Source: Paludibacteraceae bacterium
GTDB taxonomy: Bacteria; Bacteroidota; Bacteroidia; Bacteroidales; Paludibacteraceae
Assembly: GCA_024401535.1 (NCBI GenBank)
Contig: JAKSKX010000005.1
Coordinates: 85,558-149,557 of the forward strand
Reading direction: 5' to 3'
DNA: 64,000 nt
The position numbers and the translations under genes are program-made. Below the pieces are notes generated by a model. That model had not been told where the DNA came from. It searched no databases and saw only the letters and a list, made by a program, of their open reading frames with translations. Shown here in pieces: positions 11,610 through 32,458 of the stretch. Each line of letters begins with the position of its first letter. Within the stretch, counting starts at the first letter, position 1.

Positions 11610-13646
11610 ATGGCTTCAGACAATAATACTGAAAATAAATCTAAAAAACCGAACCTAGGTTCTCCGTGGTATGGTTGGCTGTATGCGGCTATTGCTGTGA
11701 TGCTTGCCTATTTCATCTTCACTGGTGACGCTCCTTCCGGCAAGGAAGTGAGCTATAACGAGATTCGCACCTTGGTCGAGCACAATGCGGTAGAGTCTAT
11801 TACCGTTGTGACAAACGAACGTGTAGCGATGGCGAAGATTAAGGATGGAAAGATGTACGAAGCATTCGCAGGCGAGGATTCCTCAAAGTACAGAAACAAT
11901 CCGAAAGTGATGGTTAAGATTCCTTCTGCAGACAAGTTTTCTGAGAATCTTGAGGAGTGGGAATTGACCAATGGCGTTGATCAGGTTAAGGTTACGTTCA
12001 CAGAGAATGAAGACTGGGTGAAAGGTTTTCTGTTTTCGTTTGGGCCATTCATCTTCCTTTTAGTCATTTATTTCTTCCTAATGCGCAGAATGACTGGCGG
12101 TGGAGGACCTGGAGGTGTTTTCAGTGTCGGAAAGAGTCGTGCCAAGCTTGTTGAGAAGGGCGGAGACAACAAAGTTACATTCAAGGATGTCGCCGGACTT
12201 GGTGAGGCAAAGCAGGAAGTTGAGGAAATAGTTGCCTTCTTGAAGAATCCTGCAAAATATACGGAGCTTGGAGGAAAGATTCCTAAGGGTGCTATCTTGG
12301 CCGGCCCTCCGGGAACAGGAAAAACTCTGCTTGCTAAGGCTGTAGCCGGTGAGGCTGACGTTCCTTTCTTCTCTTTGTCAGGTTCAGATTTCGTAGAGAT
12401 GTTTGTCGGAGTTGGTGCTAGCCGTGTTCGTGACTTGTTCCGTCAAGCTAAGGAGAAGGCACCATGTATTATCTTCATCGATGAGATTGACGCTGTAGGT
12501 CGCGCCCGTGGAAAGAATCCAAGCATGGGAGGAAATGATGAGCGAGAGAGTACTCTAAACCAGCTGCTTACAGAGATGGACGGTTTCGGTACTAACAGCG
12601 GAGTTATTATTCTAGCGGCTACAAACCGAGTTGATATTCTTGACAAGGCATTGCTTCGAGCAGGACGTTTCGACAGACAGATTAGTGTTGATCTTCCTGA
12701 TGTCAATGACCGAAAGGCTATCTTTAATGTTCATTTGTCAAAGTTGAAGCTTGATGCTGACATTGATGTAGATTTCCTTGCTCGACAGACTCCGGGATTC
12801 AGTGGTGCTGACATTGCTAATGTATGTAACGAGGCGGCTCTTATAGCTGCGCGTCACGATAAGAAAACTGTAACTAAGGATGACTTCTTGAGCGCAGTTG
12901 ACCGAATCATCGGAGGTCTTGAAAAGAAAAACAAGATTATCACTAAGGAGGAGAAGCGTTCTATTGCTATACACGAGGCAGGTCATGCAACTATAAGCTG
13001 GATGCTTCAGTATGCTGACCCTTTGGTCAAGGTTACTATTGTTCCGCGTGGTATGGCTCTTGGTGCTGCATGGTATCTGCCGGAGGAAAGACAGCTGATT
13101 ACAAAGGAGAATTTGCTTGACAAGATGTGTTCTTTGCTTGGTGGTCGTGCCGCTGAAGACTTGTTCATTGGTTCTATTGGCACAGGAGCTGCAAATGACC
13201 TTGAACGCACTACAAAGCAGGCTTACGCTATGGTTGCCTATTATGGTATGAGCGACAGTTTGAAGAATGTATGCTACTATGATTCTCAAGACAGTTATGC
13301 CTTCACTAAGCCATATTCCGACAGTACTGCACAACTTATTGATTCGGAGGTCAAGAAATTGATTAACGAGCAGTATGAGCGTGCTAAGAAGGTTCTTGAG
13401 GAGAATGCGGAAGGCCACCGTCAGTTGGCTGAGCTTCTGGTAGAGAAGGAGGTGATTTTTGCCGAGGATCTTGAGCGCATATTCGGAAAGCGCAAATGGA
13501 CTTCTCGTGCCGAGGAGATAATCAAGGAGAATGAGGAAATTGCTGCCAAGGAAAAGGCAGACTCTTCCGAAGATTCCTTTGATTCCGAGTCAAGCGAAAG
13601 CGAGAGCGAGGAATCAAATATAGAGAAAACAGATTCAAAAGAATAG
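11610..13646 (+). CDS. ftsH: ATP-dependent zinc metalloprotease FtsH
   Basis: Walker [24 protein letters not shown], and zinc site HEAGHA. ATG at 11610 is preferred over the TTG at 11604. Acidic S/E-rich C-terminal tail. Confidence 0.95.
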
Positions 13647-13654
13647 CAGAAACA

Positions 13655-13686
13655 AAGAGAGTAGGGGTGCCCTCTCTCTTGTTTTC
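13655..13686 (+). terminator. Hairpin plus U-run after ftsH
   Basis: AAGAGAG(T)AGGG gtg CCCTCTCTCTT followed by gtttt. Confidence 0.5.
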
Positions 13687-13752
13687 GTGTTTATCAATCC
13701 CGTAAAGGGTAAACTAATACATAAAACAAAGGACAATAAAAACAAACAAAGT

Positions 13753-17217: not shown

Positions 17218-20200
17218 ATGAAGAAATTTTTACTATCATTGTTTGGACTTGCATGTCTTGGAACTGCTTCGGCAGACACATATATGCATGTAGATTATAA
17301 TGGAAAGACAGACAGCTATAACGCTGACGATGTTGTCGAGGTAACTTTCGAGGAGAGAAAGAAAGAAGTTCCGCATGGTGTTTCAGTTTCTGGCACACAT
17401 GGTGGTTACGAGTATGTGGATCTAGGCCTTCCAAGTGGTATTATGTGGGCTACTTATAATATTGGAGCGACAAAGCCAGAGGAGTCAGGTGATTTCTTTG
17501 CTTGGGGAGAGACTGAGCCTAAGGATGTGTACTCTCATGATAGTTACAAGTGGTTTAAATCTTATAAAATAACTAAATATTCAGTAACTGGAACCTCAAC
17601 ACACAAGGATTATGAAGTGGATAGTTTAACGACTCTTCTTCCTGAGGATGACGCAGCAATTGTAAATTGGAAAGGAGATTGGAGAATGCCAAGTGCTGCA
17701 GACTTTAGTGAATTGCTGGCTTATACTGAATGGGAAAAAGTGTCAGATGAGGATGGCGTTTTTATAGGTCGTTTGATGACAAGTAAAATCAACGGAAACA
17801 CAATATTCTTCCCTAATGGAGGACACCAACAAGGTGATGTTGTCTATGAAAGTGTCACATTCTATTTATCAAACGAACTAAATACTAAATCTAGTAGCTG
17901 GGAGAATGTTGCACTAGTTGTTTCTTCTACTAGTAATAGTATTGGGTATAGCCCTCGTCATGAAGGTTATAAAATTCGTCCAGTATATCAGGGAGAAAGT
18001 GAGTCAGAGAAACCTCAAACATACATGATTGTTCATTTCAAGAGAGACGGGTCTAACTATGAAGATACTAAGGAGTACCTTTTGGACGATGTCAAGGATG
18101 TAAGGTTTGTACTTGGCGATGAATTGAGCTATCCAGTTTCTGGCGAAGTTGACGGTTATGAATATGTTGACCTTGGTTTGCCAAGTGGGACAAAGTGGGC
18201 TACTATGAATATAGGTGCCAAACAACCTGATGGAAGTGGTTGTTATTATTCATGGGGAGAAGTTAGGACTAAGGAAGTATATTCAAAGTCAGAATTTTCT
18301 ATTTCCGGTAATTATAATACACTGCAGAATGATGGAGTGCTAGATTTGAATGGTATGTTGAGTGCATCATACGACGCTGCAAATCAGAATTGGAGTGAGA
18401 ACTGGAGAATGCCAACATTTGATGAGTTCGACGAATTGATTGAAAATTGTAATTGGGAATGGACAACGTTCAACGGAGTTGTAGGTTACAAGGTAATTAG
18501 CAAGGAGAATGGTAAATGGATATTCCTTCCTGCATCTAACGGGCAAACTGACAAGGGAACTATCAGCTCTGATGTGAAGGGCTTTTATTGGACTTCTCAA
18601 ATGCCACAAAGATCAACTACTGTAGATAAGACATCGTTCTCGCTAGTATTCGATGAAAAAAACATGTACCTCCAATCTAATTATAATAGTAGTTACTCTG
18701 GACTAACAGTTCGTCCTGTAGTTGGCAAAGCCAGCGTGACAATCGCTAAAACATTCTCGGTTAAGTTCCTTGATATGGATGGCGCTCTCATCGAAAGTCA
18801 AAAGGTAGATGAAGGCAATAGTGCCGTAGCACCTGAAGTGCCTGTGGTATGTGGCTATAAGTTCAAAGGCTGGGACAAGTCATTCGAAAATGTCAAGTCT
18901 GATTTGATAGTCAATGCGGTTTATGATGAACTTGATGTAGAGGTTGTCAATGGTCATGAATTTGTAGATCTCGGTTTGCCAAGCGGAACGAAATGGGCAA
19001 AATATAATATTGGTGCAACAAAGTCAGATATATTTGGAGAGGGTTACCATTGGGGAGCAACAGAGATATCATCAAATGGTTATTTTAATGGTATAAGATA
19101 CATAGATGAGGCGCAAACAAAAGGATACTTGGATTCAAATGGAGATCTTGTTGCTGCTTATGATATAGCCACTCAGCTTTGGGGCGAGAACTGTAAAATG
19201 CCAACTAAGGCAGATTTTGAGGAACTTTTAGCATATTGCGATTGGGAGTTGACAACAATGTATGGAAAGAAAGGTTACAAGGTATCATCCAAGTCATCAG
19301 CAAGTGATGGATGTAATTATATTTTCTTTCCCACAATGTATACTACGCTTGGAATGGAAATAGGAGAGGATTTTGAATATTTGGGAGCATATTGGAGTAG
19401 TTCTACAGATAGTGATCGTTATATATATGCATTATCCGCAACTGAAAATGAAGTAGAAATAGTTCCTATAGTAGATGAAGGAATTTTTTGGGTTCGTCCT
19501 ATAGTGGGTAATGCCAGCGAGACAATCGCGAAATCATTCTCGGTTAAGTTCCTTGATATGGATGGTGCTCTCATCGAAAGTCAAAAGGTAGATGAAGGCA
19601 ATAGTGCTGTAGCACCTGAAGTGCCTGTGGTATGTGGCTATAAGTTCAAAGGCTGGGACAAGTCATTCGAAAATGTCAAGTCTGATTTGATAGTCAATGC
19701 GGTTTATGATGAACTTGATGTAGAGGTTGTCAATGGTCATGAATTTGTAGATCTCGGTTTGCCAAGCGGAACGAAATGGGCAAAATATAATATTGGTGCA
19801 ACAAAGTCAGATATATTTGGAGAGGGTTACCATTGGGGAGCAACAGAGATATCATCAAATGGTTATTTTAATGGTATAAGATACATAGATGAGGCGCAAA
19901 CAAAAGGATACTTGGATTCAAATGGAGATCTTGTTGCTGCTTATGATATAGCCACTCAGCTTTGGGGCGAGAACTGTAAAATGCCAACTAAGGCAGATTT
20001 TGAGGAACTTTTAGCATATTGCGATTGGGAGTTGACAACAATGTATGGAAAGAAAGGTTACAAGGTATCATCCAAGTCATCAGCAAGTGATGGATGTAAT
20101 TATATTTTCTTTCCCACAATGTATACTACGCTTGGAATGGAAATAGGAGAGGATTTTGAATATTTGGGAGCATATTGGAGTAGTTCTACAGATAGTGATC

Positions 20201-20301
20201 GTTATATATATGCTTTATCTGCAACTGAAAATGAAGTAAAAATAGTTCCTATAGTAGATGATGGAATTTTTTGGGTTCGTCCTATTCTGAATCAGAAATA
20301 A
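17218..20301 (+). CDS. Large secreted repeat protein: four 'VDLGLPSG..W...N.GA' domains (DUF1566/Fibrobacter-paralogous-like) plus two Listeria-Bacteroides (InlB B-repeat-like) repeats
   Basis: Signal peptide MKKFLLSLFGLACLGTASA. Four copies of (Y/F)VDLGLPSG(I/T)(M/K)WA.(Y/M)NIGA...W(G)E. Two copies of FSVKFLDMDG..GYKFKGWD, the Flg_new-type motif. Starts 3 nt after the upstream gene. Confidence 0.8.
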   Translation: MKKFLLSLFGLACLGTASADTYMHVDYNGKTDSYNADDVVEVTFEERKKEVPHGVSVSGTHGGYEYVDLGLPSGIMWATYNIGATKPEESGDFFAWGETEPKDVYSHDSYKWFKSYKITKYSVTGTSTHKDYEVDSLTTLLPEDDAAIVNWKGDWRMPSAADFSELLAYTEWEKVSDEDGVFIGRLMTSKINGNTIFFPNGGHQQGDVVYESVTFYLSNELNTKSSSWENVALVVSSTSNSIGYSPRHEGYKIRPVYQGESESEKPQTYMIVHFKRDGSNYEDTKEYLLDDVKDVRFVLGDELSYPVSGEVDGYEYVDLGLPSGTKWATMNIGAKQPDGSGCYYSWGEVRTKEVYSKSEFSISGNYNTLQNDGVLDLNGMLSASYDAANQNWSENWRMPTFDEFDELIENCNWEWTTFNGVVGYKVISKENGKWIFLPASNGQTDKGTISSDVKGFYWTSQMPQRSTTVDKTSFSLVFDEKNMYLQSNYNSSYSGLTVRPVVGKASVTIAKTFSVKFLDMDGALIESQKVDEGNSAVAPEVPVVCGYKFKGWDKSFENVKSDLIVNAVYDELDVEVVNGHEFVDLGLPSGTKWAKYNIGATKSDIFGEGYHWGATEISSNGYFNGIRYIDEAQTKGYLDSNGDLVAAYDIATQLWGENCKMPTKADFEELLAYCDWELTTMYGKKGYKVSSKSSASDGCNYIFFPTMYTTLGMEIGEDFEYLGAYWSSSTDSDRYIYALSATENEVEIVPIVDEGIFWVRPIVGNASETIAKSFSVKFLDMDGALIESQKVDEGNSAVAPEVPVVCGYKFKGWDKSFENVKSDLIVNAVYDELDVEVVNGHEFVDLGLPSGTKWAKYNIGATKSDIFGEGYHWGATEISSNGYFNGIRYIDEAQTKGYLDSNGDLVAAYDIATQLWGENCKMPTKADFEELLAYCDWELTTMYGKKGYKVSSKSSASDGCNYIFFPTMYTTLGMEIGEDFEYLGAYWSSSTDSDRYIYALSATENEVKIVPIVDDGIFWVRPILNQK
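18709..20283 (+). repeat. In-frame tandem duplication, two 783-bp (261-codon) units (18709-19491, 19492-20274) plus a 9-nt start of a third
   Basis: I compared the units by eye. From about 18754/19537 onward they differ at only about six positions (ggc/ggt, gcc/gct, gca tta tcc/gct tta tct, gaa/aaa, gaa/gat). Confidence 0.95.
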
Positions 20302-20326: not shown

Positions 20327-20366
20327 AAAGTAGTCGTATGGCAACATGCGACTACTTTCTTTGTTT
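20327..20366 (+). terminator. 14-bp hairpin with GCAA tetraloop plus U-rich tract after the repeat-protein gene
   Basis: AAAGTAGTCGTATG GCAA CATGCGACTACTTT then ctttgtttg. Contains one U-G pair that is valid only in the plus-strand RNA. Confidence 0.65.
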
Positions 20367-20463
20367 GAGCAGGCGTGGGATGTCTATTCCTTGTTGTTAT
20401 GTGCGAGAGTTGACAATTATCGGCGAATAGTTGAATTTTTGGCTGATGTATCGATATTTTTAG

Positions 20464-20471
20464 TAACTTTG
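20464..20471 (+). promoter_or_regulatory. -7 promoter box TAACTTTG upstream of the giant adhesin gene
   Basis: Exact TAnnTTTG match, 59 nt upstream of the ATG at 20531 and downstream of the preceding terminator. Confidence 0.5.
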
Positions 20472-20530: not shown

Positions 20531-23500
20531 ATGAGGAAATTTGTTGTAGCATTTATATTTTGCTTGTGCGCCTTTGTCGGTATGCATGCCGAGACTTTGT
20601 CTCCAGAAAAGAAATTCGACGGTAATATTGGTTTCATAACCGTAGGAAACACAAACCATAAGTTGGCTGGTGATGTCGTGCCTGGTGCTATTGATAGAGA
20701 TCGTTCAAAGGAGAATGGAGAAATAGTTCCCATCAATGTGGCAAATTTGTTCAGCGGCACAACAACCAATGCCAACTACGCTGAATTTGTTGTAGATATT
20801 CCCAAAGAGATAACATGTGAGGACGAGATAGAAATCTTGTATGCAAGCTTGTTTTGGGGCGGACGACATAAGACTTCAGGAAATGAAAGTGTAAGGATTA
20901 TGGTTACGGATTCTGTCGGCGACAAGATTGCAGGAATAAATGACAGTCTAGTAAGGACAGCTGCTGTAGATGTGCCGGTCAACGGTAAAAACAGAGGTGT
21001 CTATTCGTGTCATGCAGAAGTGACAAATTACATAAAAAAGGCTGTAAACGTAAATACTGATGATCGTCGATACCGTTTCTATGTGGCTGATTTGAACACT
21101 TCCAGTACAGAGGTTGGAAGTGGAGCAGAAATCGGTAAATTCAGCGGTTGGACCCTTAATATTGTCTATAAGCACAAGGGATTGCCTGAACGCTCAATTT
21201 ATATATTCCAGCCAAACATGATGGGTGACGTTTCCGGTACAGAAGGAGTTGAGGGAGGTGAAGGTCGTACAGATTTGTTTGTGAAATTAGGATTGGGTGA
21301 TAATTTTAAGGTTCTCAAAGATCAAGACATTAGCTTTGTTTCTACGTTCCTTGGTGCTTATCGTACAGAGGTAAAGGATAGAATTATTGCTAACGGTGAC
21401 AATAAGGGATCAATTAAAAGTCAAGATTTATTTGTAAGTCCAGGAACCGAGGGCAACTGCTTTGACAATACTATAAGCTATTCTTATGAGTTTGAAAGCG
21501 GATCCGTTAAATCTGAAGAAGCCTATACGCGTGGTTATGACCTGAAGGCAATATCGTCAAATTTGAATTCTTGTTTAGATACTGCCAACAGGACATTCAA
21601 TTTCTTTGTGGGACTATTGCCTGAGATCCATTTCTTTACTGACGCTGTATTGATGTTCGGACAGCCGGATATTCCCGGCGTAGTTGCTCAGGATGTTAGT
21701 CCTAGTAATGTCAAGCCGAACGAGTCATTCAATTATTCGCTTTTTGTTGGTCTGCACCAGAATACCGAGCAGCTTGACAATATCAATGTTCGTATTCCTT
21801 TGACAGAATACGTGGACTATGTCGAGGATGTAAAGTTGAAGATTGTTGATGCTCAGGGGGAGTCGTACTATGTCAAGCTAGTGAATAAAATGGACATGTC
21901 GCTCGAATGGAAGGATAGAGAGTACAGGATATTGGCAAATAGCGTTAGTTTTACAAGTAATTCCAAGACTACATGGTCTAAGGACAATAAGTCTGACAGA
22001 GAAAATCTTTTCAATCCGGCACTTAGAAATGCCATGTTCGTGACTGACAGTCTTAATTTGGTTGCATTCCTTGATGATCCTCTGTCTGTAAAACAAAGGG
22101 TGTTGAAGATTTCTTTCGATTCAATTCGTTCGCTTGGAGTTGACGATGATCATGCCATAGAGATAGAGTTGACTCTTCATTCCAAGTCAGAGACAGACTG
22201 GGCATATCAGAAGAACCACCTTTTGGCAAACAGAGAACTTCCTATGCTTCAGCAGAGCGAAGTGACATTCCATACACCTTCGGACAGAAATTCTGTGCTC
22301 CAGAGCATGGACACAGATAACAAGTATAATAAAAAAGGTAAATTCGACTGGTCAACCTATATATGTGACCAGAAAGGCCGTGGCGGTATAGGCGCCGGCG
22401 GTGGTGGAGATCTTGATTTAGGCGGAGGAGGCAATGGCCGTTGCGAAAAGAGCGGCTATACAAGGGAAGATGCGGCAAAAGGCGGTGTCTTTACAAAAGA
22501 TACTACCCACGTCAGTATCAACGTCAAGCCTAATGGGGAATTCTGTCCAAAGTTCACTCTTCCCGATGCGCTTGAATTTAGCTTCTGCGAGAATACAGAG
22601 GTTTCAGCTGCCGGCATCAAGGAAATCTTGAAAGTAAGATATAGGGCCGATTTGGATTCACTTGCCAAGCGTGATTCGTTGATATGGCTTGAAGCAAAGC
22701 AGGCAATGGTCTATGACTATATCAAGAAGTACGGTGTTACTCGCCAGGAGATGGAGGGCCTTGTCAACTTTAACAGCGTAAGTGCAACGACAGATAGAAT
22801 TGTAAACCTTTCTTCGTGTGGTGCCGGCACCCCTGTATATGACAGAGGTCTTGACAGCATCATGAACATGAAGATTGAGTACTCGGACATCTTCTTGTTC
22901 TATAATTCACCTGCAGTCGGAGATTTGTATGACACTCCTAAGGATTCAGTATCTTTGCGCAAGTTGAGAGGAGACGGAAAGAGCTGGGTGTTCACTGACT
23001 CCCTTGACCTGTACATGTACTACAAGTCTCCTTGGGATAATGGTGCCTGCAACAAGTTTATACCTGTCAAGATCAGATCGTTCAAGAACAATGCTCCTGT
23101 AGTTCAGTACGGAGGTTCAACACTGCCTGCAAAGGGAGATACAACTATTCGTGTATGTCTTGACTCAAATCTTGACCCATTCAAGGTAATCAAGCAGAGC
23201 GCTACACATGACATCTACGTCTCTATTGACGGAGGTGAATCAAAGCCAATAAATGTTGATCCGGTAAAAGAGTTCGACTGGATATTAAAGGAGTCTGAAC
23301 TTGACACAAAGCAGAGCGGAACCAAGAAGTTCATAGTGTATGGCAAGGATATGGACTGCTATACTGACACGCTGCACTTTAGCATCACTGTAAGTGAAAC
23401 TAAGATTACAGAAGTTCCTGAAATAGCAAGAATCGAGGGCGACGAGTTGAATGGTGACGTCCAAATGATAAAGATTTGTAAGAGCAGAGAGGAACTTGAC

Positions 23501-26500
23501 TCTCTTACCATTAACCTTCTTGATCCTATTCCAAGTTACGAAGCGGTTTGGACTGCCAAGACAGACACTTCACTTGTGGCTTTAGGAAAGGGTAACTCAA
23601 TCAATGTTCAAAAGGATGTTGTGGGTACTACATATTACTCTGTAGTGTATGCTAATGATGATTGTGTAGGAGACTTGAAGGATGAAATCAGAGTGGAGAT
23701 TCTTCCTTTGCCGGACACATTAAGCCCTGACACATTCGCAATATGCTATAACTACGAGCTCACATCAACCGACTTGAGCAATGCGGCACAGAGAAGTGTT
23801 GTACAGAGCGGCGTGACTCTTTCGTACTATGACAACCTTGCAAAGGCGGAGGCTAACCAGCCGACTGAAGTCGAGGATATGGCTAAGTCTCTTAACAGAG
23901 ATGTCTTGAATAGCGGTTACACACCTTACTATGTCAGAGTTTATGACAATAACGAATGTTATAGCGTTCCTACTCGCAACGAGATCAAGAGAAACCAGTT
24001 CGATTTGACTGCGCCTAAGTTCCCTGTCGATGTCAAGGGCGTACTCGTGGATTCTGCATTGGTTTGTCTAGGAGCACAGCCTAAGGAAAACCTTAACGAG
24101 TATTTGAGCGAGGAAGAAACAGCTAAGGTGGATGGTGCTGTCAAACAGCCTAAATGGATGTGGGTTCACAGCATATCGAACATTCCTGAATATACTCCTA
24201 CTTCAACATTATACAGTAATGTCAGAGATTCGTATTCCTCGTACCTTGACGGAACAGCGGCAGGACACGATACAATGTATGTTGTCAGAGTGGATTCCAA
24301 CAGCTGTATAAGCGAGCCGAAGCAGTTCAGACTTCATGTGGATTCAAATATCACAACTTTGCCGTATGTGGATGATCCTTTGATGCCGCGCAACGGGTTG
24401 AGCCGTCTTGATTTGAACTATTGCCAGTACAAGGAGAAGTACAAGTCAGGATACATTCCTGCATGGGGAACGGAGCCAGGCTATATTGTCGAGTGGTATA
24501 AGGTTGACAGCCTTACTCAATTTGTCGAGGATACTGTGGTGACAAAACCTTTCGCAGAGATTTCATTCGATTATCCGGACACTTTGCTATACAAGGTTAG
24601 ACAAAGTACTGCGTTGGGCTGTCATGGAAAGTGGCTGCCAGTCAGGGCAATGATTCATCCTGCGGTAACACTGACTCCGGAGGTGGATATGATAGAACTT
24701 TGTAAGGGAGCAGACCCTGTCGAAGTAGTCGTGAAAAACAAACCTGAGAACAAGGGTCTTTCCACATTCTTTGTAGAGGATGGTAAAGATAATGATGTTG
24801 AAAATTATCTTCTTAAACTCTATGTAAATGCTGATGAGGCCACACCAGAGGACCAGGAACCCGTTGTAAACGGATATGTCCTGTTCAAGAGCTCGACTAC
24901 TGGATGTACAAGTGATTCTACCCCAATCAAGTCGCGAATCCATGAGCTTCCTAAGAAGCCTGTTTCTGAATTCAAGACTAAAAATTTCTGTTTGGAGAGC
25001 GGCGATATAGATTTGGTTGATTTGTTCAAAGTGGAAACTGTAGCCGAAGATGTGAACTATAATTCAAACTCGTTGGTCTGGTCTTCTGTCCTAAGCCGTG
25101 AGCCGAAAGTCGATCCAACCGGAATACTTAGTTCATCAACTGCTTTGAGCAACTTCTTGGTTTCTGTAAAGCAGTATGATAACGAGACTGGTTGCGAGGG
25201 AGATACTATCAATTTGAGAATCAATGTTGACTCAACATTCTCTTATGTCCATTTCGATACAACTTTGTGCTACGGCCAGACTATGGAGTTGTGCCTTGAG
25301 GTGGCAAAGAGAATCAAACATAAGAAGAACTCTTATGTAACTTCCGATATAGATTTCAATGTCTATCCTTTGTCCGGAAACACTCCATCCCTTACACCTC
25401 TAGGCAAGAGTGACAAGGTCAAGTCTCCATACGAGCGTCACGAGAGCAAGCTGCAGAGATACTTGGTCAAGATTTGGGAAAAGGAGAGCGGTTGCGAGAT
25501 TGAGGACACACTAAGTCTTGAGTTCCGCGGTTTGCCTGTTGTCGAGATAAAGAACAGCATAGACACATGCAGCATGGCAGATTTCGTACTGCCAATTGTT
25601 ACAGAAAGAGCAGAGGACATTGTCGAGTGGTATCGTGAGGACAGCACACCGCACAGCGGCAGGAACATGTCTTTGGACAAGAGCGAGAAGCCATACGTGA
25701 TTGTTACTGACGAGTATGCTTGTAAGGATACTGCAACACTTGACGTAATAATTCATGTAAATCCTTTGAAGCCTTTGGTAAGTGATGCTGTTATATGTCA
25801 GCATTCCGGTATTGTAAACTTGAAGATGGACAACAATGTCGATCCTAGTTCAGAAAATACAGCAGCCAAGTTGAAACTTCTGGTTTACAACTATGACGAG
25901 ATGGAGAAAGGAAAGGAGGTCGATGCTTATGTGAATACAGACAAACTTGACTTTACATCCTCTGTCAAATCTTTGAAGTATATTGTACGCCAGGAGAACA
26001 TGCTTACTACATGTTTTGATACTGCGCATATCAATGTTACCGTACGCAGAAAGTACACACCAGAGATTCCTGACTTCGGCCCTACATGCAAGGATCAGGT
26101 GTTTGATATGGGCAAGTATGTTAACAATTATGTTTCAACAGAGCGTGCTTCCATTGGTATTGCCAATCTGTCAACCATTACACTTTCTTATGCTGACATG
26201 AACGGAGAGTTGAGCGAGGCGCAGACTGGAGCCATAGTTCGCCAGTTGGACTCGGACACTACTCTTTACTCGTTCAAGATTACTGACAACGACAAGGTAT
26301 GTGAAGTTGCCGACACGTTCATGGTAATCATAAATGAGATTCCTTCAGCTCCAATGATAGAGGAAGGTCAGGATTCTGTATTCCTTTGTGGTAATGGAGT
26401 TGCTCCGCTTGAGGTAAGCGCCAAGCCAACAAATAGCGATGCTACAAATCTTGATATCTGGTGGAGGGTGAACGGAACCGACTACAAGAGCGACACATAT

Positions 26501-29500
26501 ACTCTCGGCTCCGAGGTTAGCAAAGCCACATTAAAGTCTTATGTCAAGAACTCAAAGACTGGTTGCGAAAGTGACCTTAGCGAGATTGTTGCGACTGTAG
26601 TTCCTGTAATGGCTGCGAAGACTCTTGATTCGCTTATATTATGTGCAGGCGAAGAAGTGAATGTGTTCGAATATTTGAAGAAGTCGTTTGTTTACACTCC
26701 TGCATACACCTCGCGTATTGGATACAAGGTTACAGAGAACGGTATGCTTGTCAAAAACATAAGCGAGCTGACTAAGGCAAAGAAGACTGCCCATACTGTC
26801 AACAATTACGAGATAGAGATGATGGACACATTGACCGGATGTTCCGCCAAGAATACATTTAGAGTGGTTTGGGAGGATGCGGTCAACAATTCAATCTTGG
26901 CAAAGAATATTGCCTGTCAGGGTGATGACGCATCTTTAGTTGCTGTTGGCGAGTCAAGACCTCATACATTGAAGTGGGTAATCGACGGCGAACTTGTCGG
27001 AACAGAAAAGCAGTTGGATATAACTTCCTTGACAAAGACAACTGAAGTTAAGTTGATTACAAACATTTCGGGAACAGAGTGTAGTGACACCTTGACTCAT
27101 ACATTGACTGTATATGACACGCCTGAGAAGTTGGAGGATGTACCGACATTCAGATTCTGTCAGGCTAACGAAAGCCATGACATAACTTTGAATCATTCGG
27201 AGTATGAGATAGAGTGGACAAACGCAAGAGACGAGGTGAATGTTACTGAGTTCTATCCAGTGTCTGCTTCAAAGGATACTGCATTCGTTCTTCAGGCTAG
27301 ACTTATAAATAATGTCACTACTGGCAAGCTAGGAATGGATACAGTTTGTAGATCCACTCCAATAGATGTGAATGTTGAGGTTGTCAAGCATATAAATGTC
27401 TCATTGGCAGATACTAATGTTTGTGTTCCAAGCACATATAACCTTATGAAGGCAGTTCAACAGCCGGATCTGTCGTTGAAGGTTTACTCGATATCTCCAA
27501 AGGTTGAGGATTCGTTGGCTGTTAGCAAGTCTGCTCTTTACACCATCACGTACGAGGACAAGTGGCATTGCCAGACTTCCGCAACTACTGATGTCAGATT
27601 TATCAGCAAGCCGGATTCAGTAATCATAGCAAAGAACGGATTCAATATGTGTCTTGGCTCTGAAACTGTTGTCAAGCCGGTTGTCAGCGCTGGTCAGTAC
27701 GTTATCGAATGGACAAATACAAGAGACAAATCAAAGTTGATAAGCGACACTCTTGCCATATCGGCCGACAAGGAATCCGTATCTCCAATTATGTATGATG
27801 TTGTCAGAGTGGATACTATCTACGGTTGTCGAAGCGTTACAACACCATTCTCTTACAATGTAATGCCGAAGATATCAATCAATCCATATTCGGATCAGCA
27901 CGTCTGCGATTACGAGACTTTGGACATAGATTCGTTGTCCAAGTCAATATTCAATAACTTTGATGATCTTGAGGTTACAAACAAGGCACGCAAGGTTACT
28001 GATGACAAGACAAGTCTCTTGTTCTCTGCTGTCAATCCAGTATCTACATGTACTGCAGAGGTTTCTCTTGACATAATCACTCACCAGAGTCCAAAATTCT
28101 CGGTTACAGGAAATCATCCTGCTTGTCAGGGCGACACAGTCGTTCTAGAGGCAGTTGGCAGTGACCAATATTTCTGGGGTTATGAAGGCAATACAAACCG
28201 CGCCGCAAAATCTTTTGCAGTCACTAGCAAGGAGAACCAGGATGTGAATGTTGACCTTCGTGTTAAGTTGTTTGCACCTATAGATGGTGACAACAAGTAC
28301 TGTTATGCAGATACTTCAATAACAGTGTCATTTGCTAAGGTTCCTGAACTTGTTGGTGGCAAACTTGATACTGCTTATTGCCAGAACACTTTGATAAATG
28401 AGTTGCCGGAGATTGTTGCTACAGATCCAGCAGCAAGTATAGTATGGTATTCATATGCTGACAACTATACTGAGCCTTATGTTATCAAGTCATTGGATGA
28501 GGTTGCTGCTAGCAGCGGAGATTTCAACTACAAGTTCAAGCAGGTTCTAGGTATATGTTCAACAAAGCTTCAGAACTACACAATCAGGATTCAGCCTAGG
28601 ATTGAGGATGCTCCTGTTCTTCGAGATACAGTATATTGTATAGATGCTGATCCATTGCTGTTGTCTAAATCAGACTATAACAATCCATTGGTATCTTCTA
28701 TGTATGACTTGGAGTGGAGTGACAAAGAGGAGGTTGTTGTAGATGGAACAGCTCTTCCTTTGACTAATGAAGTAGGTGCAAAGATGTATTATGCGCGCTA
28801 TACTAAGGGCGTATGTAAGGGAGACGCTTCTACGATTGTTGTCAAGGTTGAGCCTCATTATCAGGACATGCCTTTGGTTGATGAACTTCAGAAGTTCTGC
28901 CCTAAAACAGGAACTTATGATTTGACGGCGAAGACAACAAACTCTTCTGCAAGACTTAATTGGTACTATGAGTTCAGTAACCAGCGTATGGACAACATAA
29001 CTATAGATACTGACCAGCCAAATTGGACAACTGCAACATACAAGGTTACTCAGTCCGTTCTTGACGGATGTGAGAGTATGCCAGCAGTGTTTACAGTCCA
29101 GTTGAAGAAGCCAGTGGCAGGAAGAGACACTTTGATAAAGAATATGTGCCTTGGCGACAAGTTCAGTATCGAGGAACTATTTGAAGAGTTGTCTGTAAGC
29201 GAGGTTATTGATGAAGTTAAGGATGACAAGAACAACATAATCGACCATATTATAGCAAGTGACGGTACTTACCATGTTGATGTGCATAACGAGGACGAAT
29301 GTAAGGCTCAGTTCAACGTGGCAGTCAAGACTTGGAGTGTTGGAGCCCCTATAGTTGAGGAACCTAAGGAACAGTATTGTGCCGGAGACAAAGTTCACGT
29401 TAGTGTAGTTGCTCCGAACGAAGTTGACTATCGTTGGTACAGCCAGAACGAGGACAAGATTGTAGGGTATGTTTCCACTATCAATACTGTGGCTGGAACT

Positions 29501-30331
29501 GAATCCGACTCGTTGTTCTTGACAATGAGTGTAAAGGGACATCCGGAGTGTCAGAGTGAGCTTAAATTCGAAATCAATGTTGCACCAAAGATGGAGTTTG
29601 ATATTGTAGGAGACACAGCAATATGTGCAGGCAACGAATTCAGCCTTTCTGCAACAAACATCACTAACAAGAGTTGGATGATGTTTGACACTTTGTTCGT
29701 GACTGAAACATTCGTATATGCTCCTTCTAAGAGCGGCTATGTCACTGCACTTGGAATTGACAAGTATGGATGTAATACACAGAAGTCCGTTCTTGTGAAT
29801 GTTTACGAGAGTCCTAAGCCTTCGATCCTTGTAGGCGATACAGTGGACCATCCTAATTTCGATCTTGATCGCGATGACAGGGATATCAGTTTCGAGGCTA
29901 TTGTCAATGCAGACGAAACAGCTGAGTTGGTTTATTACTGGGAGGTTGGTGATGGAAATATTTACGACGCCAAGTCTTTCACTCACGAGTATGAGTATGA
30001 CTTCGTGGATATGATCAAGCCTATACCTGTCAAACTTCGTGTCTATTACGAGTTTGATGAACACTGTATGGGTAATGCAACTGCAATACTCCGTGTAAAT
30101 CCTGATTTTGAGGTACCTAACACTATGGGAGCTGATGACCATTTTATGCCTAACTACAACTTGCAGATATTTGACCGTGTTGGCAATTTGATTTTTGAAG
30201 GCAGGGATGGATGGAAGGGCCAGGATATGGACGGACGTGAAGTGTTCGGAGACACTTATTTCTATGCAATCACGTACTTTATAGATGGCAAGAAGTATGT
30301 CAAGAACGGATACATTACCTTGGTTCGTTAA
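20531..30331 (+). CDS. Giant (3266 aa) T9SS-secreted cell-surface adhesin-like protein: N-terminal head, Gly-rich linker, about 25 Cys-pair Ig-like modules, PKD-like domain, type B CTD
   Basis: Signal peptide MRKFVVAFIFCLCAFVGMHA and one uninterrupted 9.8-kb ORF. Recurrent ~88-aa modules with 'xxCxG/xxC...' at the start and 'GC....v.V' at the end. YYWEVGDG...THEY is a PKD-like motif. The C-terminus matches the gliding-motility/T9SS type B sorting domain. Confidence 0.9.
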   Translation: MRKFVVAFIFCLCAFVGMHAETLSPEKKFDGNIGFITVGNTNHKLAGDVVPGAIDRDRSKENGEIVPINVANLFSGTTTNANYAEFVVDIPKEITCEDEIEILYASLFWGGRHKTSGNESVRIMVTDSVGDKIAGINDSLVRTAAVDVPVNGKNRGVYSCHAEVTNYIKKAVNVNTDDRRYRFYVADLNTSSTEVGSGAEIGKFSGWTLNIVYKHKGLPERSIYIFQPNMMGDVSGTEGVEGGEGRTDLFVKLGLGDNFKVLKDQDISFVSTFLGAYRTEVKDRIIANGDNKGSIKSQDLFVSPGTEGNCFDNTISYSYEFESGSVKSEEAYTRGYDLKAISSNLNSCLDTANRTFNFFVGLLPEIHFFTDAVLMFGQPDIPGVVAQDVSPSNVKPNESFNYSLFVGLHQNTEQLDNINVRIPLTEYVDYVEDVKLKIVDAQGESYYVKLVNKMDMSLEWKDREYRILANSVSFTSNSKTTWSKDNKSDRENLFNPALRNAMFVTDSLNLVAFLDDPLSVKQRVLKISFDSIRSLGVDDDHAIEIELTLHSKSETDWAYQKNHLLANRELPMLQQSEVTFHTPSDRNSVLQSMDTDNKYNKKGKFDWSTYICDQKGRGGIGAGGGGDLDLGGGGNGRCEKSGYTREDAAKGGVFTKDTTHVSINVKPNGEFCPKFTLPDALEFSFCENTEVSAAGIKEILKVRYRADLDSLAKRDSLIWLEAKQAMVYDYIKKYGVTRQEMEGLVNFNSVSATTDRIVNLSSCGAGTPVYDRGLDSIMNMKIEYSDIFLFYNSPAVGDLYDTPKDSVSLRKLRGDGKSWVFTDSLDLYMYYKSPWDNGACNKFIPVKIRSFKNNAPVVQYGGSTLPAKGDTTIRVCLDSNLDPFKVIKQSATHDIYVSIDGGESKPINVDPVKEFDWILKESELDTKQSGTKKFIVYGKDMDCYTDTLHFSITVSETKITEVPEIARIEGDELNGDVQMIKICKSREELDSLTINLLDPIPSYEAVWTAKTDTSLVALGKGNSINVQKDVVGTTYYSVVYANDDCVGDLKDEIRVEILPLPDTLSPDTFAICYNYELTSTDLSNAAQRSVVQSGVTLSYYDNLAKAEANQPTEVEDMAKSLNRDVLNSGYTPYYVRVYDNNECYSVPTRNEIKRNQFDLTAPKFPVDVKGVLVDSALVCLGAQPKENLNEYLSEEETAKVDGAVKQPKWMWVHSISNIPEYTPTSTLYSNVRDSYSSYLDGTAAGHDTMYVVRVDSNSCISEPKQFRLHVDSNITTLPYVDDPLMPRNGLSRLDLNYCQYKEKYKSGYIPAWGTEPGYIVEWYKVDSLTQFVEDTVVTKPFAEISFDYPDTLLYKVRQSTALGCHGKWLPVRAMIHPAVTLTPEVDMIELCKGADPVEVVVKNKPENKGLSTFFVEDGKDNDVENYLLKLYVNADEATPEDQEPVVNGYVLFKSSTTGCTSDSTPIKSRIHELPKKPVSEFKTKNFCLESGDIDLVDLFKVETVAEDVNYNSNSLVWSSVLSREPKVDPTGILSSSTALSNFLVSVKQYDNETGCEGDTINLRINVDSTFSYVHFDTTLCYGQTMELCLEVAKRIKHKKNSYVTSDIDFNVYPLSGNTPSLTPLGKSDKVKSPYERHESKLQRYLVKIWEKESGCEIEDTLSLEFRGLPVVEIKNSIDTCSMADFVLPIVTERAEDIVEWYREDSTPHSGRNMSLDKSEKPYVIVTDEYACKDTATLDVIIHVNPLKPLVSDAVICQHSGIVNLKMDNNVDPSSENTAAKLKLLVYNYDEMEKGKEVDAYVNTDKLDFTSSVKSLKYIVRQENMLTTCFDTAHINVTVRRKYTPEIPDFGPTCKDQVFDMGKYVNNYVSTERASIGIANLSTITLSYADMNGELSEAQTGAIVRQLDSDTTLYSFKITDNDKVCEVADTFMVIINEIPSAPMIEEGQDSVFLCGNGVAPLEVSAKPTNSDATNLDIWWRVNGTDYKSDTYTLGSEVSKATLKSYVKNSKTGCESDLSEIVATVVPVMAAKTLDSLILCAGEEVNVFEYLKKSFVYTPAYTSRIGYKVTENGMLVKNISELTKAKKTAHTVNNYEIEMMDTLTGCSAKNTFRVVWEDAVNNSILAKNIACQGDDASLVAVGESRPHTLKWVIDGELVGTEKQLDITSLTKTTEVKLITNISGTECSDTLTHTLTVYDTPEKLEDVPTFRFCQANESHDITLNHSEYEIEWTNARDEVNVTEFYPVSASKDTAFVLQARLINNVTTGKLGMDTVCRSTPIDVNVEVVKHINVSLADTNVCVPSTYNLMKAVQQPDLSLKVYSISPKVEDSLAVSKSALYTITYEDKWHCQTSATTDVRFISKPDSVIIAKNGFNMCLGSETVVKPVVSAGQYVIEWTNTRDKSKLISDTLAISADKESVSPIMYDVVRVDTIYGCRSVTTPFSYNVMPKISINPYSDQHVCDYETLDIDSLSKSIFNNFDDLEVTNKARKVTDDKTSLLFSAVNPVSTCTAEVSLDIITHQSPKFSVTGNHPACQGDTVVLEAVGSDQYFWGYEGNTNRAAKSFAVTSKENQDVNVDLRVKLFAPIDGDNKYCYADTSITVSFAKVPELVGGKLDTAYCQNTLINELPEIVATDPAASIVWYSYADNYTEPYVIKSLDEVAASSGDFNYKFKQVLGICSTKLQNYTIRIQPRIEDAPVLRDTVYCIDADPLLLSKSDYNNPLVSSMYDLEWSDKEEVVVDGTALPLTNEVGAKMYYARYTKGVCKGDASTIVVKVEPHYQDMPLVDELQKFCPKTGTYDLTAKTTNSSARLNWYYEFSNQRMDNITIDTDQPNWTTATYKVTQSVLDGCESMPAVFTVQLKKPVAGRDTLIKNMCLGDKFSIEELFEELSVSEVIDEVKDDKNNIIDHIIASDGTYHVDVHNEDECKAQFNVAVKTWSVGAPIVEEPKEQYCAGDKVHVSVVAPNEVDYRWYSQNEDKIVGYVSTINTVAGTESDSLFLTMSVKGHPECQSELKFEINVAPKMEFDIVGDTAICAGNEFSLSATNITNKSWMMFDTLFVTETFVYAPSKSGYVTALGIDKYGCNTQKSVLVNVYESPKPSILVGDTVDHPNFDLDRDDRDISFEAIVNADETAELVYYWEVGDGNIYDAKSFTHEYEYDFVDMIKPIPVKLRVYYEFDEHCMGNATAILRVNPDFEVPNTMGADDHFMPNYNLQIFDRVGNLIFEGRDGWKGQDMDGREVFGDTYFYAITYFIDGKKYVKNGYITLVR
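23150..29810 (+). repeat. Protein-level array of about 25 diverged ~88-aa modules, each with a conserved cysteine pair
   Basis: Module pairs read from the translation include VCLDSN..MDCYTD, KICKSR..DDCVGD, AICYNY..NECYSV, VCLGAQ..SNSCIS and so on to AICAGNEF..KYGCNTQ. The modules are not similar at the DNA level. Confidence 0.7.
30113..30328 (+). other. T9SS type B (gliding-motility-associated) C-terminal sorting domain of the giant protein
   Basis: VPNTMGADDHFMPNYNLQIFDRVGNLIFEGRDGWKGQDMDGREVFGDTYFYAITYFIDGKKYVKNGYITLVR fits the pattern (I/V)PN.F.P..D..N..F......L.IF.R.G..(I/V)FE...GWDG...G......G.Y.Y.......G....G.(I/V)TL(I/V)R. Confidence 0.8.
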
Positions 30332-30372
30332 AATTGACTTTTAGCTAATAGAACATTAAATTAGAAATATCA

Positions 30373-31374
30373 ATGAAACAAAGTTCGATGACCGCAGGAG
30401 TCAATAGTTTCAGATACATATATATGTTGTTGGTATGCGCTCTCTTGAGCGTCAGCTGTATAGCTCAAGAGGATGTGTTGTTTACCAACAAGCAGATGCG
30501 CATGCCGTACTACAATCCAGCATATATCCCAGAGCTGTTGGAAGCTACCATCACAGTGGGAGGCAGAAACCAGTGGACAGGAATCGAAGGCGCACCTAAG
30601 ACTATAATGGTCTCTGGAAAATACTTCTTTGTGGGTGCCCATTCGCAAGTTTCCTTGTCTTATATGGCGGACAAGATTGGTTATCAATATACTTTGCAGC
30701 CGAAGCTTCAGTATGCGTTCATGGTTCCTTTTGCTGATGACTGCTATTTGAATCTCGGAGTGGGTGGCGGATTTGTCAAGAGAGGCTATCATCCCGAGAT
30801 GATAGACCCTGTAAACACTATCAATGACGCTACTATTGAGGACAAACTGATAGAGAGCAGACAGCCAGATGCAGAGGCTGGATTCGAACTGCTTATCCAG
30901 AATTTTGAATTGGGAGCATCTGTGAATCATTTGATAAAGGGAAATAGCGAGCGCCCTATGACAAAGTTCTATTCCGCCTATGCAAACTATCTTTTCCAGA
31001 CTAAGGAGTGGTGGAGACTTACAGCTTCATATTCACTTTATAATTATCATGAGATGAACTATGGGCAAAGATGGAAGCATCAGTTGAGCGTTTATTTCCA
31101 ATATTTGTGGGACTACGAGGCTAAGCCAAAGGATTTGGTGTATCTTGGACTTGCGTTCAGACCAACACTTGAGGGTAGTATAATGGGAGGAATAAACTTG
31201 TTCTCGTTCCTGAATGTGTTCTATTCGTATGACTGTTTCTTTGGTAACTTGAGATATACAAGCAAAGGAACTCACGAAATAGGTCTTGAGTTCAAAATTC
31301 CTCACAAGTTCAAGGGATGTTATGCCAACTATGGCAAGAGCCACAAGTACACTCGATATACAAGAATCAAGTAA
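30373..31374 (+). CDS. PorP/SprF-family type IX secretion system outer-membrane protein
   Basis: Signal peptide, then AQEDVLFTNKQMRMPYYNPAY and GGRNQWTGIEGAPKT, the hallmark N-terminal blocks of PorP/SprF. 333 aa, beta-rich, 41 nt downstream of a type B CTD cargo gene. Confidence 0.85.
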   Translation: MKQSSMTAGVNSFRYIYMLLVCALLSVSCIAQEDVLFTNKQMRMPYYNPAYIPELLEATITVGGRNQWTGIEGAPKTIMVSGKYFFVGAHSQVSLSYMADKIGYQYTLQPKLQYAFMVPFADDCYLNLGVGGGFVKRGYHPEMIDPVNTINDATIEDKLIESRQPDAEAGFELLIQNFELGASVNHLIKGNSERPMTKFYSAYANYLFQTKEWWRLTASYSLYNYHEMNYGQRWKHQLSVYFQYLWDYEAKPKDLVYLGLAFRPTLEGSIMGGINLFSFLNVFYSYDCFFGNLRYTSKGTHEIGLEFKIPHKFKGCYANYGKSHKYTRYTRIK

Positions 31375-31633: not shown

Positions 31634-32458
31634 ATGAGGAAGATTTTAAATTTTGTAGCTATACTCGCTACTCTTTCATTTAATACGATTTTTGTATCTT
31701 GTACTGATGATGACGAGGATGATTCTAAGGGGAAGGATGAACAGCATTCAGATATAAACACAGGTGACTCGGATTTCAAGTTTTTTATCTTGAACGAGAA
31801 TGAAATCGAGGTGACTGGCCTTAACACTAGTTCTTTGTACTTCGTTGAATCTGCTATATATGAAGTTCCAGAGATTATTACAGTGAAGGGAAAGGAATAT
31901 ACAGTGACAAGTATCGGAGACAAGGCTTTCTCTGGAATGCAAAGAATCAAGAAAATCACACTTCCCAAGACAATTACAAACATTGGTGCGCAGGCTTTCG
32001 AAGGATGTTCTGAAGTTGAGAGCATCAGCACTTATGATGGTTTGATGACAATTGGTCCTGGTGCTTTCCAGGGATGCCTGAAGCTAAAAAATCTTTATAT
32101 CCCAGAGAGTGTAGTGACAATTGATCTTTATGCTTTCTCTGGATGCAAGAGCCTGGAAACTATTACTGTTCCCAAGAATTTGAAGAAGATAGACAATGCC
32201 TTGTTCAGAAGTTGCGAGAGCTTGACTTCCATAACTATTCCAAAGAATGTTGAGTCTATTGGCGCTGAGGCATTCTTAGGTTGTTCTTCTCTTACAAATG
32301 TGATTATTCCTGAAAGTGTCAAGGTTATTGGAAACAAGGCATTTTTGGAGTGCTATAAGCTTAATGTCGAGGTTGAGAATCTTATGAAAAATGTAGCTTT
32401 GGGTGACAGTGTGTTTGTTGATTGCTTGTCGCTTAAATACGCCGACACAAACGAGTAG
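31634..32458 (+). CDS. Surface-exposed lipoprotein with BspA-type leucine-rich repeats
   Basis: Lipoprotein signal ...TIFVSC followed by the acidic run CTDDDEDD, which resembles the Bacteroidota lipoprotein export signal. About 7 repeats of the type IP.SV..IG..AF..C.SL..I. Confidence 0.85.
   Translation: MRKILNFVAILATLSFNTIFVSCTDDDEDDSKGKDEQHSDINTGDSDFKFFILNENEIEVTGLNTSSLYFVESAIYEVPEIITVKGKEYTVTSIGDKAFSGMQRIKKITLPKTITNIGAQAFEGCSEVESISTYDGLMTIGPGAFQGCLKLKNLYIPESVVTIDLYAFSGCKSLETITVPKNLKKIDNALFRSCESLTSITIPKNVESIGAEAFLGCSSLTNVIIPESVKVIGNKAFLECYKLNVEVENLMKNVALGDSVFVDCLSLKYADTNE

Follow-up and report, generated by a model that had tools for sequence, protein, structure and literature searches.

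The giant gene and its carrier gene

We analyzed a stretch of 64,000 nucleotides (nt) from a metagenome-assembled genome (MAG) of a Paludibacteraceae bacterium (assembly GCA_024401535.1, contig JAKSKX010000005.1, positions 85,558-149,557); this whole stretch is referred to as the window, and coordinates are given within it unless another contig or strain is named. The study concerns two genes on its + strand, the giant gene P0001 and the gene P0002, which starts after a spacer of 41 nt. P0001 looks like a type IX secretion system (T9SS) cargo of type B, an assignment that is strongly supported, and P0002 encodes a member of the PorP/SprF carrier family. An initial annotation had described P0001 as a single open reading frame (ORF) of 3266 amino acids (aa) with a signal peptide, a head of ~600 aa, a Gly linker and ~25 Cys modules, and had proposed a Bacteroidales host; this description was borne out, with 25 canonical modules counted in a Paludibacteraceae MAG. 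The features of the two genes are as follows.

20531..30331, + strand: giant gene P0001, 3266-aa ORF, type B T9SS cargo (strongly supported)
20531..20590, + strand: putative Sec signal peptide, residues 1-20, MRKFVVAFIFCLCAFVGMHA / ETL, called by sequence inspection
20591..22366, + strand: head, residues 21-612, beta-rich and multi-domain, with one long helix
22367..22441, + strand: Gly-rich linker, residues 613-637, called from the sequence; the Gly run is kept here in all orthologues
22442..23119, + strand: transition region, residues 638-863, which probably holds two degenerate modules and a helical insert
23120..29815, + strand: 25 canonical Cys-pair immunoglobulin (Ig)-like modules, residues 864-3095, called from module alignment, an Ig_7 match, the match to GhpA and the structural model
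29816..30100, + strand: PKD-like terminal beta-sandwich, residues 3096-3190, with sub-threshold PKD/PKD_4 matches and a lone invariant Cys 3179
30101..30328, + strand: type B (CHU_C) T9SS C-terminal sorting domain, residues 3191-3266, PF13585
30373..31374, + strand: PorP/SprF carrier gene P0002, 333-aa ORF
31294..31371, + strand: periplasmic basic C-terminal tail of P0002, residues 308-333, KIPHKFKGCYANYGKSHKYTRYTRIK, the 26 residues after the end of the Pfam barrel match

The C-terminus of P0001 scores above the gathering cut-off of PF13585 (CHU_C), which is 27 bits, both in the whole protein (35.0 bits) and as a separate C-terminal piece (37.8 bits). The NCBIfam model TIGR04131 gives 19.6-23.1 bits against a cut-off of 35, with expect values (E) of 6e-5 to 7.5e-4, and this sub-threshold score counts against the assignment; the same model is matched by 21/21 orthologous C-termini at E <= 0.01, the best at 3.9e-9. 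The type B domain proposed in the initial annotation therefore stands by one family model and falls short by the other. Its PKD-like domain likewise remains below the Pfam cut-offs (PKD_4 21.5 against 27; PKD 15.6-17.7 against 23.5), but it carries a W-x-x-G-D-G signature that is conserved in orthologues, with W-x-F-G-D-G invariant, and it folds into seven strands in the model. At the other end of the protein, the putative signal peptide has, by inspection, a typical n-h-c region, and the orthologue alignment starts just past residue 20.

The profile searches confirmed the annotated carrier gene, as P0002 scores above both family cut-offs (PF11751, 104.6 against 22.3; TIGR03519, 118 against 90.55). 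Orthologues align only from about residue 16 of P0002, so translation may in fact begin at a later Met. In 22/22 orthologous loci the giant is followed directly downstream by a PorP/SprF gene of the same strand, and P0002 shares 41-95% identity with the carriers of these loci, compared with 21-26% with its seven paralogues in the same genome. This constant adjacency and the gap in identity indicate that P0002 is a dedicated carrier co-inherited with the giant. Apart from the NCBIfam C-terminal score, the P0001/P0002 pair shows the testable features of a type B cargo and its carrier.

The head is restricted to a sub-clade of the Paludibacteraceae. It is present in 34 of 201 sampled genomes of the family, one copy each, concentrated in 5-6 of 33 genera, and among 1.84 billion representative proteins it matches only 21 clusters, always at the N-terminus; the full-length matches bearing it are proteins of 2.3-4.2 thousand aa with the same C-terminus. 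The nearest named relative, from a single-sequence scan that returned one close relative, is a Paludibacteraceae MAG (Bacteroidales) with 95% identity over the head. No match to the head was found in Pfam, NCBIfam or PDB sequences with the single sequence, nor in the PDB with a 10-sequence head profile, and full-length P0001 gave no PDB sequence match. The AlphaFold2 model of the head, built on a 25-sequence alignment, has a predicted local distance difference test score (pLDDT) of 73 and a predicted template modeling score of 0.70, and beta structure dominates it, with a single helix of 29 residues and a number of loops of low confidence. A Foldseek search with this model returned nothing significant in the PDB (best E 2e-3, template modeling score (TM) 0.15) and generic beta-sandwich matches among the viral models of BFVD (TM <= 0.18, root-mean-square deviation > 20); these matches are weak and generic, and we therefore treat them as no fold assignment. 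The head had been noted at the outset as belonging to no recognizable family, and the searches agree: judged by sequence and model comparison, it is a new family with no known fold. A pair of cysteines (Cys 96, Cys 160) is conserved in it, as are the motifs A-x-L-x-W-G-G, Y-S-C-H-A-D, S-G-W and N-E-x-H-F. A place at the rod tip is suggestive of binding, and the head is most likely ligand-binding.

Stalk modules and the pairing of their cysteines

The canonical modules have a mean length of 89.3 aa (range 73-119), and each contains one Cys ~12 residues after its start (C1) and one ~13 residues before its end (C2). The gaps between successive cysteines alternate between short (20-45) and long (46-82) 24 times, with a longest unbroken run of 17, against a mean of 3.7 +/- 1.7 and a longest run of 4 in a shuffle control (n=5000). 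The transition region upstream of the array holds an extra C1-type Cys 686, Cys 763 and Cys 840, with spacings of 154 aa between 686 and 840 and 180 aa between 763 and 943, and the 'LL' Cys pattern at the array start is conserved across the family. Residues 638-863 are thus read as probably two degenerate modules, bringing the stalk to a total of ~27.

The modules are strongly diverged at the sequence level. One of them exceeds the Pfam cut-off for Ig_7 (PF19081) in a whole-protein scan, 6/27 match singly at E < 1, and phmmer and hmmsearch runs iterated from the single Pfam-positive module returned that module alone. Roughly one third of the modules in relatives escaped a profile made from Cys-anchored modules, and for this reason the strings of Cys gaps were analyzed directly. 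Searched against PDB proteins, the module profile identified one solved protein, GhpA (5898 aa, Aureispira), at E 5e-49 and with many repeats matched. The AlphaFold2 model of the last 410 residues, based on a 21-sequence orthologue alignment, is all-beta with a mean pLDDT of 83.4, and its seven best Foldseek matches in the PDB are all fragments of the GhpA stem (E 3e-16 to 4e-12, TM ~0.4); generic Ig chains rank behind these with far worse superposition. The model and its best matches support the Ig-like fold that had been proposed for the modules, and by profile comparison the modules are homologous to the GhpA stem repeats.

The initial annotation took each bead to be stapled by its own pair of cysteines, a view that does not fit the data collected here. 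Instead, the cysteines probably bridge adjacent modules, C1(n) to C2(n+1), as is suggested by sequence, by the model and by analogy with GhpA. In the model, C1 ends the first strand, ~12 residues past the module boundary, and C2 lies just before the last strand, which traverses the whole module as far as the next boundary; this topology places the two cysteines of one module at opposite poles, and C1(n) and C2(n+1) meet at the junction. In the GhpA stem, disulfides join neighboring domains (GhpA structure paper), and Cys2988 and Cys3140, which a table of profile coordinates assigns to C1 of a repeat and C2 of the repeat that follows, are 152 residues apart; the C1(n)-C2(n+1) spacing in P0001 is 131-187 residues. 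All seven cysteines in the last 410 residues are invariant at ~30% identity, including the lone Cys 3179, which gains a partner (Cys 3032) only under the n-to-n+1 scheme and so favors inter-module pairing. The ends of the arrays follow the same pattern. Nearly all orthologues have an extra C1-type Cys at the start of the array and an extra C2-type Cys at its end, the arrays of other giants in the same genome end likewise on an extra Cys, and in unrelated type B cargoes from other families an extra Cys follows the last C2 in 41/41 arrays.

Internal stapling has the simplest bookkeeping, with two cysteines per module. In one orthologue group, moreover, a C1-like and a C2-like Cys both lie in the PKD-like domain, which fits an intra-domain bond and weighs against bridging, as does the fact that the GhpA cysteines were mapped by profile coordinates and not by residue-level alignment. 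Clean 'missing Cys' defects inside arrays were sought to tell the two pairing models apart, and no unambiguous case was found. We nevertheless regard internal stapling as clearly unlikely, since it has to join cysteines set at opposite module ends, departs from the inter-domain bonds of GhpA, leaves without partners both the invariant Cys 3179 and the extra C1 with which the array starts, and predicts arrays that finish cleanly on C2, as 0/41 of the unrelated ones do. With bridging between neighbors, the stalk would be a covalently braced rod.

The stalk is also probably O-glycosylated, to judge from its sequence. The Bacteroidota O-glycosylation motif D[ST][AILVMT] occurs 36 times where 11.5 +/- 3.3 are expected (~threefold, z = 7.5), an enrichment in keeping with the stem glycan densities reported for GhpA (GhpA structure paper). 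Part of the excess sits 4-5 residues N-terminal to C1 (D-[ST]-x-x-C) and is perhaps partly a structural motif.

Stalk length varies among orthologues from ~25 to 39 modules (proteins of 3188-4611 aa). The 96% identical protein of a close strain, L001 (76-10632; 3518 aa), contains two 73%-identical copies of a three-module block; the window has a single copy at 28316-29098, which is a hybrid of both L001 copies and indicates that module number changed by unequal recombination.

Carrier tail and genome context

The tail of P0002 contains Cys316 (codon 31318-31320) within a motif, [KQ][GS]C[YFL]ANYG, in which the Cys is invariant in 23/23 carriers. It is the sole conserved Cys column in these 23 carriers and consequently has no fixed internal partner. 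Two recent studies give this residue a context. Liu et al. found Cys326 in SprF's periplasmic C-terminal tail disulfide-bonded to GldK Cys343, a bond that links the adhesin with the moving track but that export does not require (PMC12635249). In the proposal of Gorasia et al., a PorP-like protein and a PorE-like, peptidoglycan-binding protein together hold static type B cargoes, whereas a PorP-like protein alone holds mobile ones such as SprB (PMC9143113). In the genome studied here, GldK has a Cys349 at the place expected for the partner of the SprF tail, and no PorE-like gene is found among the neighbors of P0001 and P0002. The invariant tail Cys and the lack of a PorE-like neighbor place P0002 in the SprF-like carrier class. 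A side observation is that the sequence K-G-C-Y-A-N-Y in the P0002 tail resembles K-G-C-F-L-A-N-F around Cys349 of GldK (C67:67341-68768), possibly by chance.

The same division was observed within the genome and beyond it. Four of the genome's carriers have no PorE-like neighbor and carry a tail Cys, and the three that have such a neighbor lack the Cys; the three PorE-like genes (PD40+OmpA, between cargo and carrier) sit at the loci on C3, C8 and C29 only. The core PorP on C67 has no tail Cys. We then took a census of 120 PorP/SprF genes in 22 genomes of 22 families, with the following counts.

PorE-like neighbor, tail Cys: 0 carriers
PorE-like neighbor, no tail Cys: 28 carriers
No PorE-like neighbor, tail Cys: 54 carriers
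No PorE-like neighbor, no tail Cys: 38 carriers

Both carrier classes occur together in 13 of the census genomes, and 0/13 break the exclusivity. Fisher's test gives 2e-9, a value that overstates the evidence because the genes are related and not independent.

The census also revealed further types of carrier C-terminus. When a PorE-like OmpA gene follows the carrier, the tail is almost always short and free of Cys and has a conserved ...[ST]PR[YF][FL] C-terminus, which could be a PorE-docking motif. Eight cargo-adjacent carriers (e.g. L089, L102, L114, L129, L135, L139, L143, L154) bear a C-terminal extension of 165-335 aa after the barrel, charged and coiled-coil-like, and form a third class that lacks both the tail Cys and the PorE-like neighbor. 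PorP-like genes just upstream of gldK (e.g. L054, L074, L101, L105, L111) show two tail types, both Cys-bearing, 'C[FY]K...NVRFL' and '...CKPKKKKFRT[IV]SCPSF', which are found in tandem in some genomes.

The 2.96-Mb assembly encodes a T9SS core. GldK (575 bits), GldM (397 bits) and SprA (2273 bits) all score above their cut-offs, and a core PorP adjoins gldK in a cluster that also contains GldL- and GldN-sized ORFs. The gliding proteins give a mixed picture, with GldD (236 against 120) and GldH (131 against 78.7) above the cut-offs and the GldJ-like and GldB-like matches below them. The genome holds 18 CHU_C domains on open frames, which together amount to 51,191 aa or 5.2% of the genome, and 8 PorP/SprF genes, so that the P0001/P0002 locus is one of a set. 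The largest CHU_C-ending frames encode 11,291 aa (C12, 112484-146356, - strand) and 8,936 aa (C56, 26877-53684, + strand). The SprB repeat (PF13573) occurs in the genome only in the 11,291-aa frame, and the C12 contig has no PorP/SprF match.

P0001 and P0002 appear to form their own transcription unit, as suggested by a terminator upstream of the giant gene, a candidate promoter and the lack of a terminator in the gap between the two genes. The regulatory features are as follows.

20327..20358, + strand: terminator hairpin of the upstream FISUMP-repeat gene, a 14-pair stem followed by a T-run
20440..20471, + strand: candidate Bacteroidota-type promoter, TTTG at 20440-20443, a 20-nt spacer and TAACTTTG at 20464-20471, matched by eye

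The hairpin separates the FISUMP gene from the transcription unit of the giant. The Bacteroides promoter consensus is -33 TTTG / -7 TAnnTTTG; in the candidate, TAACTTTG starts 21 nt past the end of TTTG and lies ~60 nt 5' of the P0001 ATG. This promoter call comes from a by-eye match to the consensus and not from the output of a tool. The upstream gene (17218-20301) encodes a secreted protein of 1027 aa with FISUMP (Fib_succ_major) and Listeria-Bacteroides repeat domains, in which the last ~260 residues are a near-exact tandem copy of the preceding ~260 and no T9SS domain is recognizable. The neighbors of the pair also include an efflux operon and a BspA-type leucine-rich repeat (LRR) gene. 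One such gene lies 3' of the carrier (31634-32458), where strain L001 has four tandem genes of ~270 aa (11963-15618); the site shows copy-number variation of a surface LRR gene, the extra L001 copies being placed by position and not by family.

Interpretation and alternatives

The arrangement of a cargo gene and a PorP/SprF carrier gene has already been published for Flavobacterium johnsoniae and Porphyromonas gingivalis, where a type B cargo binds and needs its cognate carrier (PMC9143113, PMC12618676). The statement in the initial annotation that such giants are essentially unexplored thus overstated their novelty. Its analogy with SprB/SprF of F. johnsoniae holds in part. In both systems a giant, repetitive type B cargo is encoded directly upstream of the carrier that belongs to it, the locus is free of PorE-like genes, the periplasmic tail of the carrier has a conserved Cys and GldK has a partner Cys; the pair studied here stays together in all its orthologous loci. 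In contrast to SprB, P0001 has an unrelated head and no SprB repeats, and on the latter ground SprB identity was rejected; P0002 is only a distant relative within PF11751, and its host is an uncultured gut anaerobe not known to glide.

The GhpA/GhpB/GhpC grappling hook of Aureispira sp. CCB-QB1 (PDB 9flp, 9g8b and others), in which GhpA measures 240 nm for its hook and 52 repeats and assembles as a heptamer into a hollow rod, shares its overall plan with our locus: a signal peptide, an N-terminal head, a long Cys-bearing Ig-like array, a T9SS C-terminal domain and a downstream PorP homologue. The homologous GhpA stem repeats are the best structural match for the stalk of P0001, with the same inter-domain disulfide spacing and glycosylation motifs likely. 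P0001 has ~27 repeats as opposed to 52, the PorP homologue (ghpB) is matched beside it by P0002 but the PorE homologue (ghpC) by no gene, and its head is not similar to the hook in sequence and profile comparisons with the full-length GhpA chain, the hook structure being unsolved. With an unrelated head and no PorE homologue, P0001 is not a GhpA orthologue. PG1035/PorP/PorE of P. gingivalis and the operons of type B cargo, SprF-like and PorE-like genes in F. johnsoniae share with our locus a surface cargo bound by a PorP-like barrel in cognate pairs; they differ in the PorE-like OmpA protein that ties the complexes to peptidoglycan, which is missing at the P0001 locus and present three times elsewhere in the genome. 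Finally, the Pfam Ig_7 arrays ('Ig-like domain CHU_C associated') of Cytophaga and other Bacteroidota have the same module type and the same C-terminal domain, although the modules of P0001 are very diverged. As far as sequence comparison goes, the stalk of P0001 resembles GhpA and its anchoring resembles SprF.

Sequence, models and analogy together make it likely that the locus encodes a cargo for type IX secretion along with a carrier of its own, and that these make up a rigid surface adhesin held by a carrier that is perhaps coupled to the track. By analogy with the work on F. johnsoniae and P. gingivalis, the giant would cross the SprA translocon, be collected by its own carrier, a PorP/SprF protein of the 14-strand-barrel family, and be kept bound through its C-terminal domain, so that it would project from the cell surface as a filament whose far tip is the head. 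The ~27 Ig-like modules and the PKD-like domain would form a stiff rod through C1(n)-C2(n+1) bonds, as in the GhpA stem, with a stalk of ~100 nm when scaled from GhpA. Cys316 of P0002 may form a disulfide with GldK Cys349, as SprF Cys326 does with GldK Cys343, a proposal from sequence and analogy to which we assign slightly less than an even chance. Such a bond would tie the filament to the track or ring that contains GldK, instead of linking it to peptidoglycan by way of a PorE-like protein. That such a tether moves the filament along the cell in a SprB-like role, a suggestion made by analogy, is rather doubtful.

Several observations weigh against this interpretation, mainly against its coupling step. 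The tail of P0002 lacks the Cys-x-Cys of SprF and has a single Cys (KGCYANYG) with no second one, and in SprF the loss of the first Cys makes the bond to GldK inefficient (PMC12635249). The GldJ-like (397 against 458) and GldB-like (160 against 190) matches are below the cut-offs, and the GldB and GldH models also match B. thetaiotaomicron, a non-gliding Bacteroides control. The exclusivity of tail Cys and PorE-like neighbor is a correlation among related subfamilies, and 34/77 cargo-adjacent carriers of the census have neither feature, so that the lack of a PorE-like neighbor alone does not mean coupling to the track. To our knowledge, gliding has not been reported in Paludibacteraceae.

The single-Cys tail motif, the sub-threshold GldJ and GldB, the lack of a gliding report known to us and the many carriers with neither feature are all points in favor of a static adhesin fiber, whose carrier would merely anchor the giant in the outer membrane, off the track, with another role for the tail Cys, be it as a free thiol, in the ligation of a metal or in a bond with some partner other than GldK. 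What speaks for coupling to GldK instead is a Cys316 that stays invariant among carriers of 41-95% identity and has no conserved internal partner, together with its mutual exclusion with PorE-like neighbors in the 120 carriers and the presence of the partner Cys in GldK. We give the static fiber appreciable but tentative weight. A grappling-hook-like device, in which copies of the giant are bundled into a hollow multimeric rod like the GhpA heptamer and catch cells or particles, would account for the shared plan, the homology of the stem modules and a multi-domain geometry that fits GhpA best; we consider it improbable, since the head lacks similarity to the GhpA chain, ghpC has no counterpart at the locus and oligomeric state cannot be read from sequence. 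Furthermore, such Cys modules are widespread among type B cargoes that are otherwise unrelated, and stem homology therefore does not imply a GhpA-like assembly. A released enzyme or toxin with a catalytic head and the rod as spacer is very improbable, for although the head has invariant motifs containing His, Glu and Asp (YSCHAD, NExHF) and no assigned function, it matches no enzyme family or fold, and published type B cargoes with a cognate carrier stay surface-bound (PMC9143113, PMC12635249).

In its broadest form, the interpretation of P0001 as a track-coupled adhesin would have anaerobic gut Paludibacteraceae run a SprB-like conveyor or gliding system with a ~100-nm, GhpA-like, disulfide-braced rod whose carrier is hooked to GldK by one tail Cys, and would have the tail rule sort all Bacteroidota type B adhesins into track-coupled and wall-anchored ones; we think this unlikely. 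While the layout of cargo and carrier is itself known, the head family and the variant carrier tail are new here, and the disulfide bracing and the exclusivity of tail Cys and PorE-like neighbor are leads that reach beyond this locus. A lineage-restricted head of no known fold, at the tip of a filament, is a candidate determinant of what uncultured gut Bacteroidales stick to. At the level of sequence, the arrays furnish evidence for cross-links from module to module in the Cys-pair Ig modules that are widespread in type B cargoes, and such bonds, if real, would explain how single polypeptides can serve as stiff ~100-nm rods, an explanation that extends to many giants. The suggested predictor, a Cys in the carrier tail as opposed to a PorE-like neighbor, links two recent experimental papers and may distinguish type B adhesins coupled to the GldK track from those tied to the cell wall; if it holds, it would point to movement of surface adhesins in gut anaerobes without known gliding.

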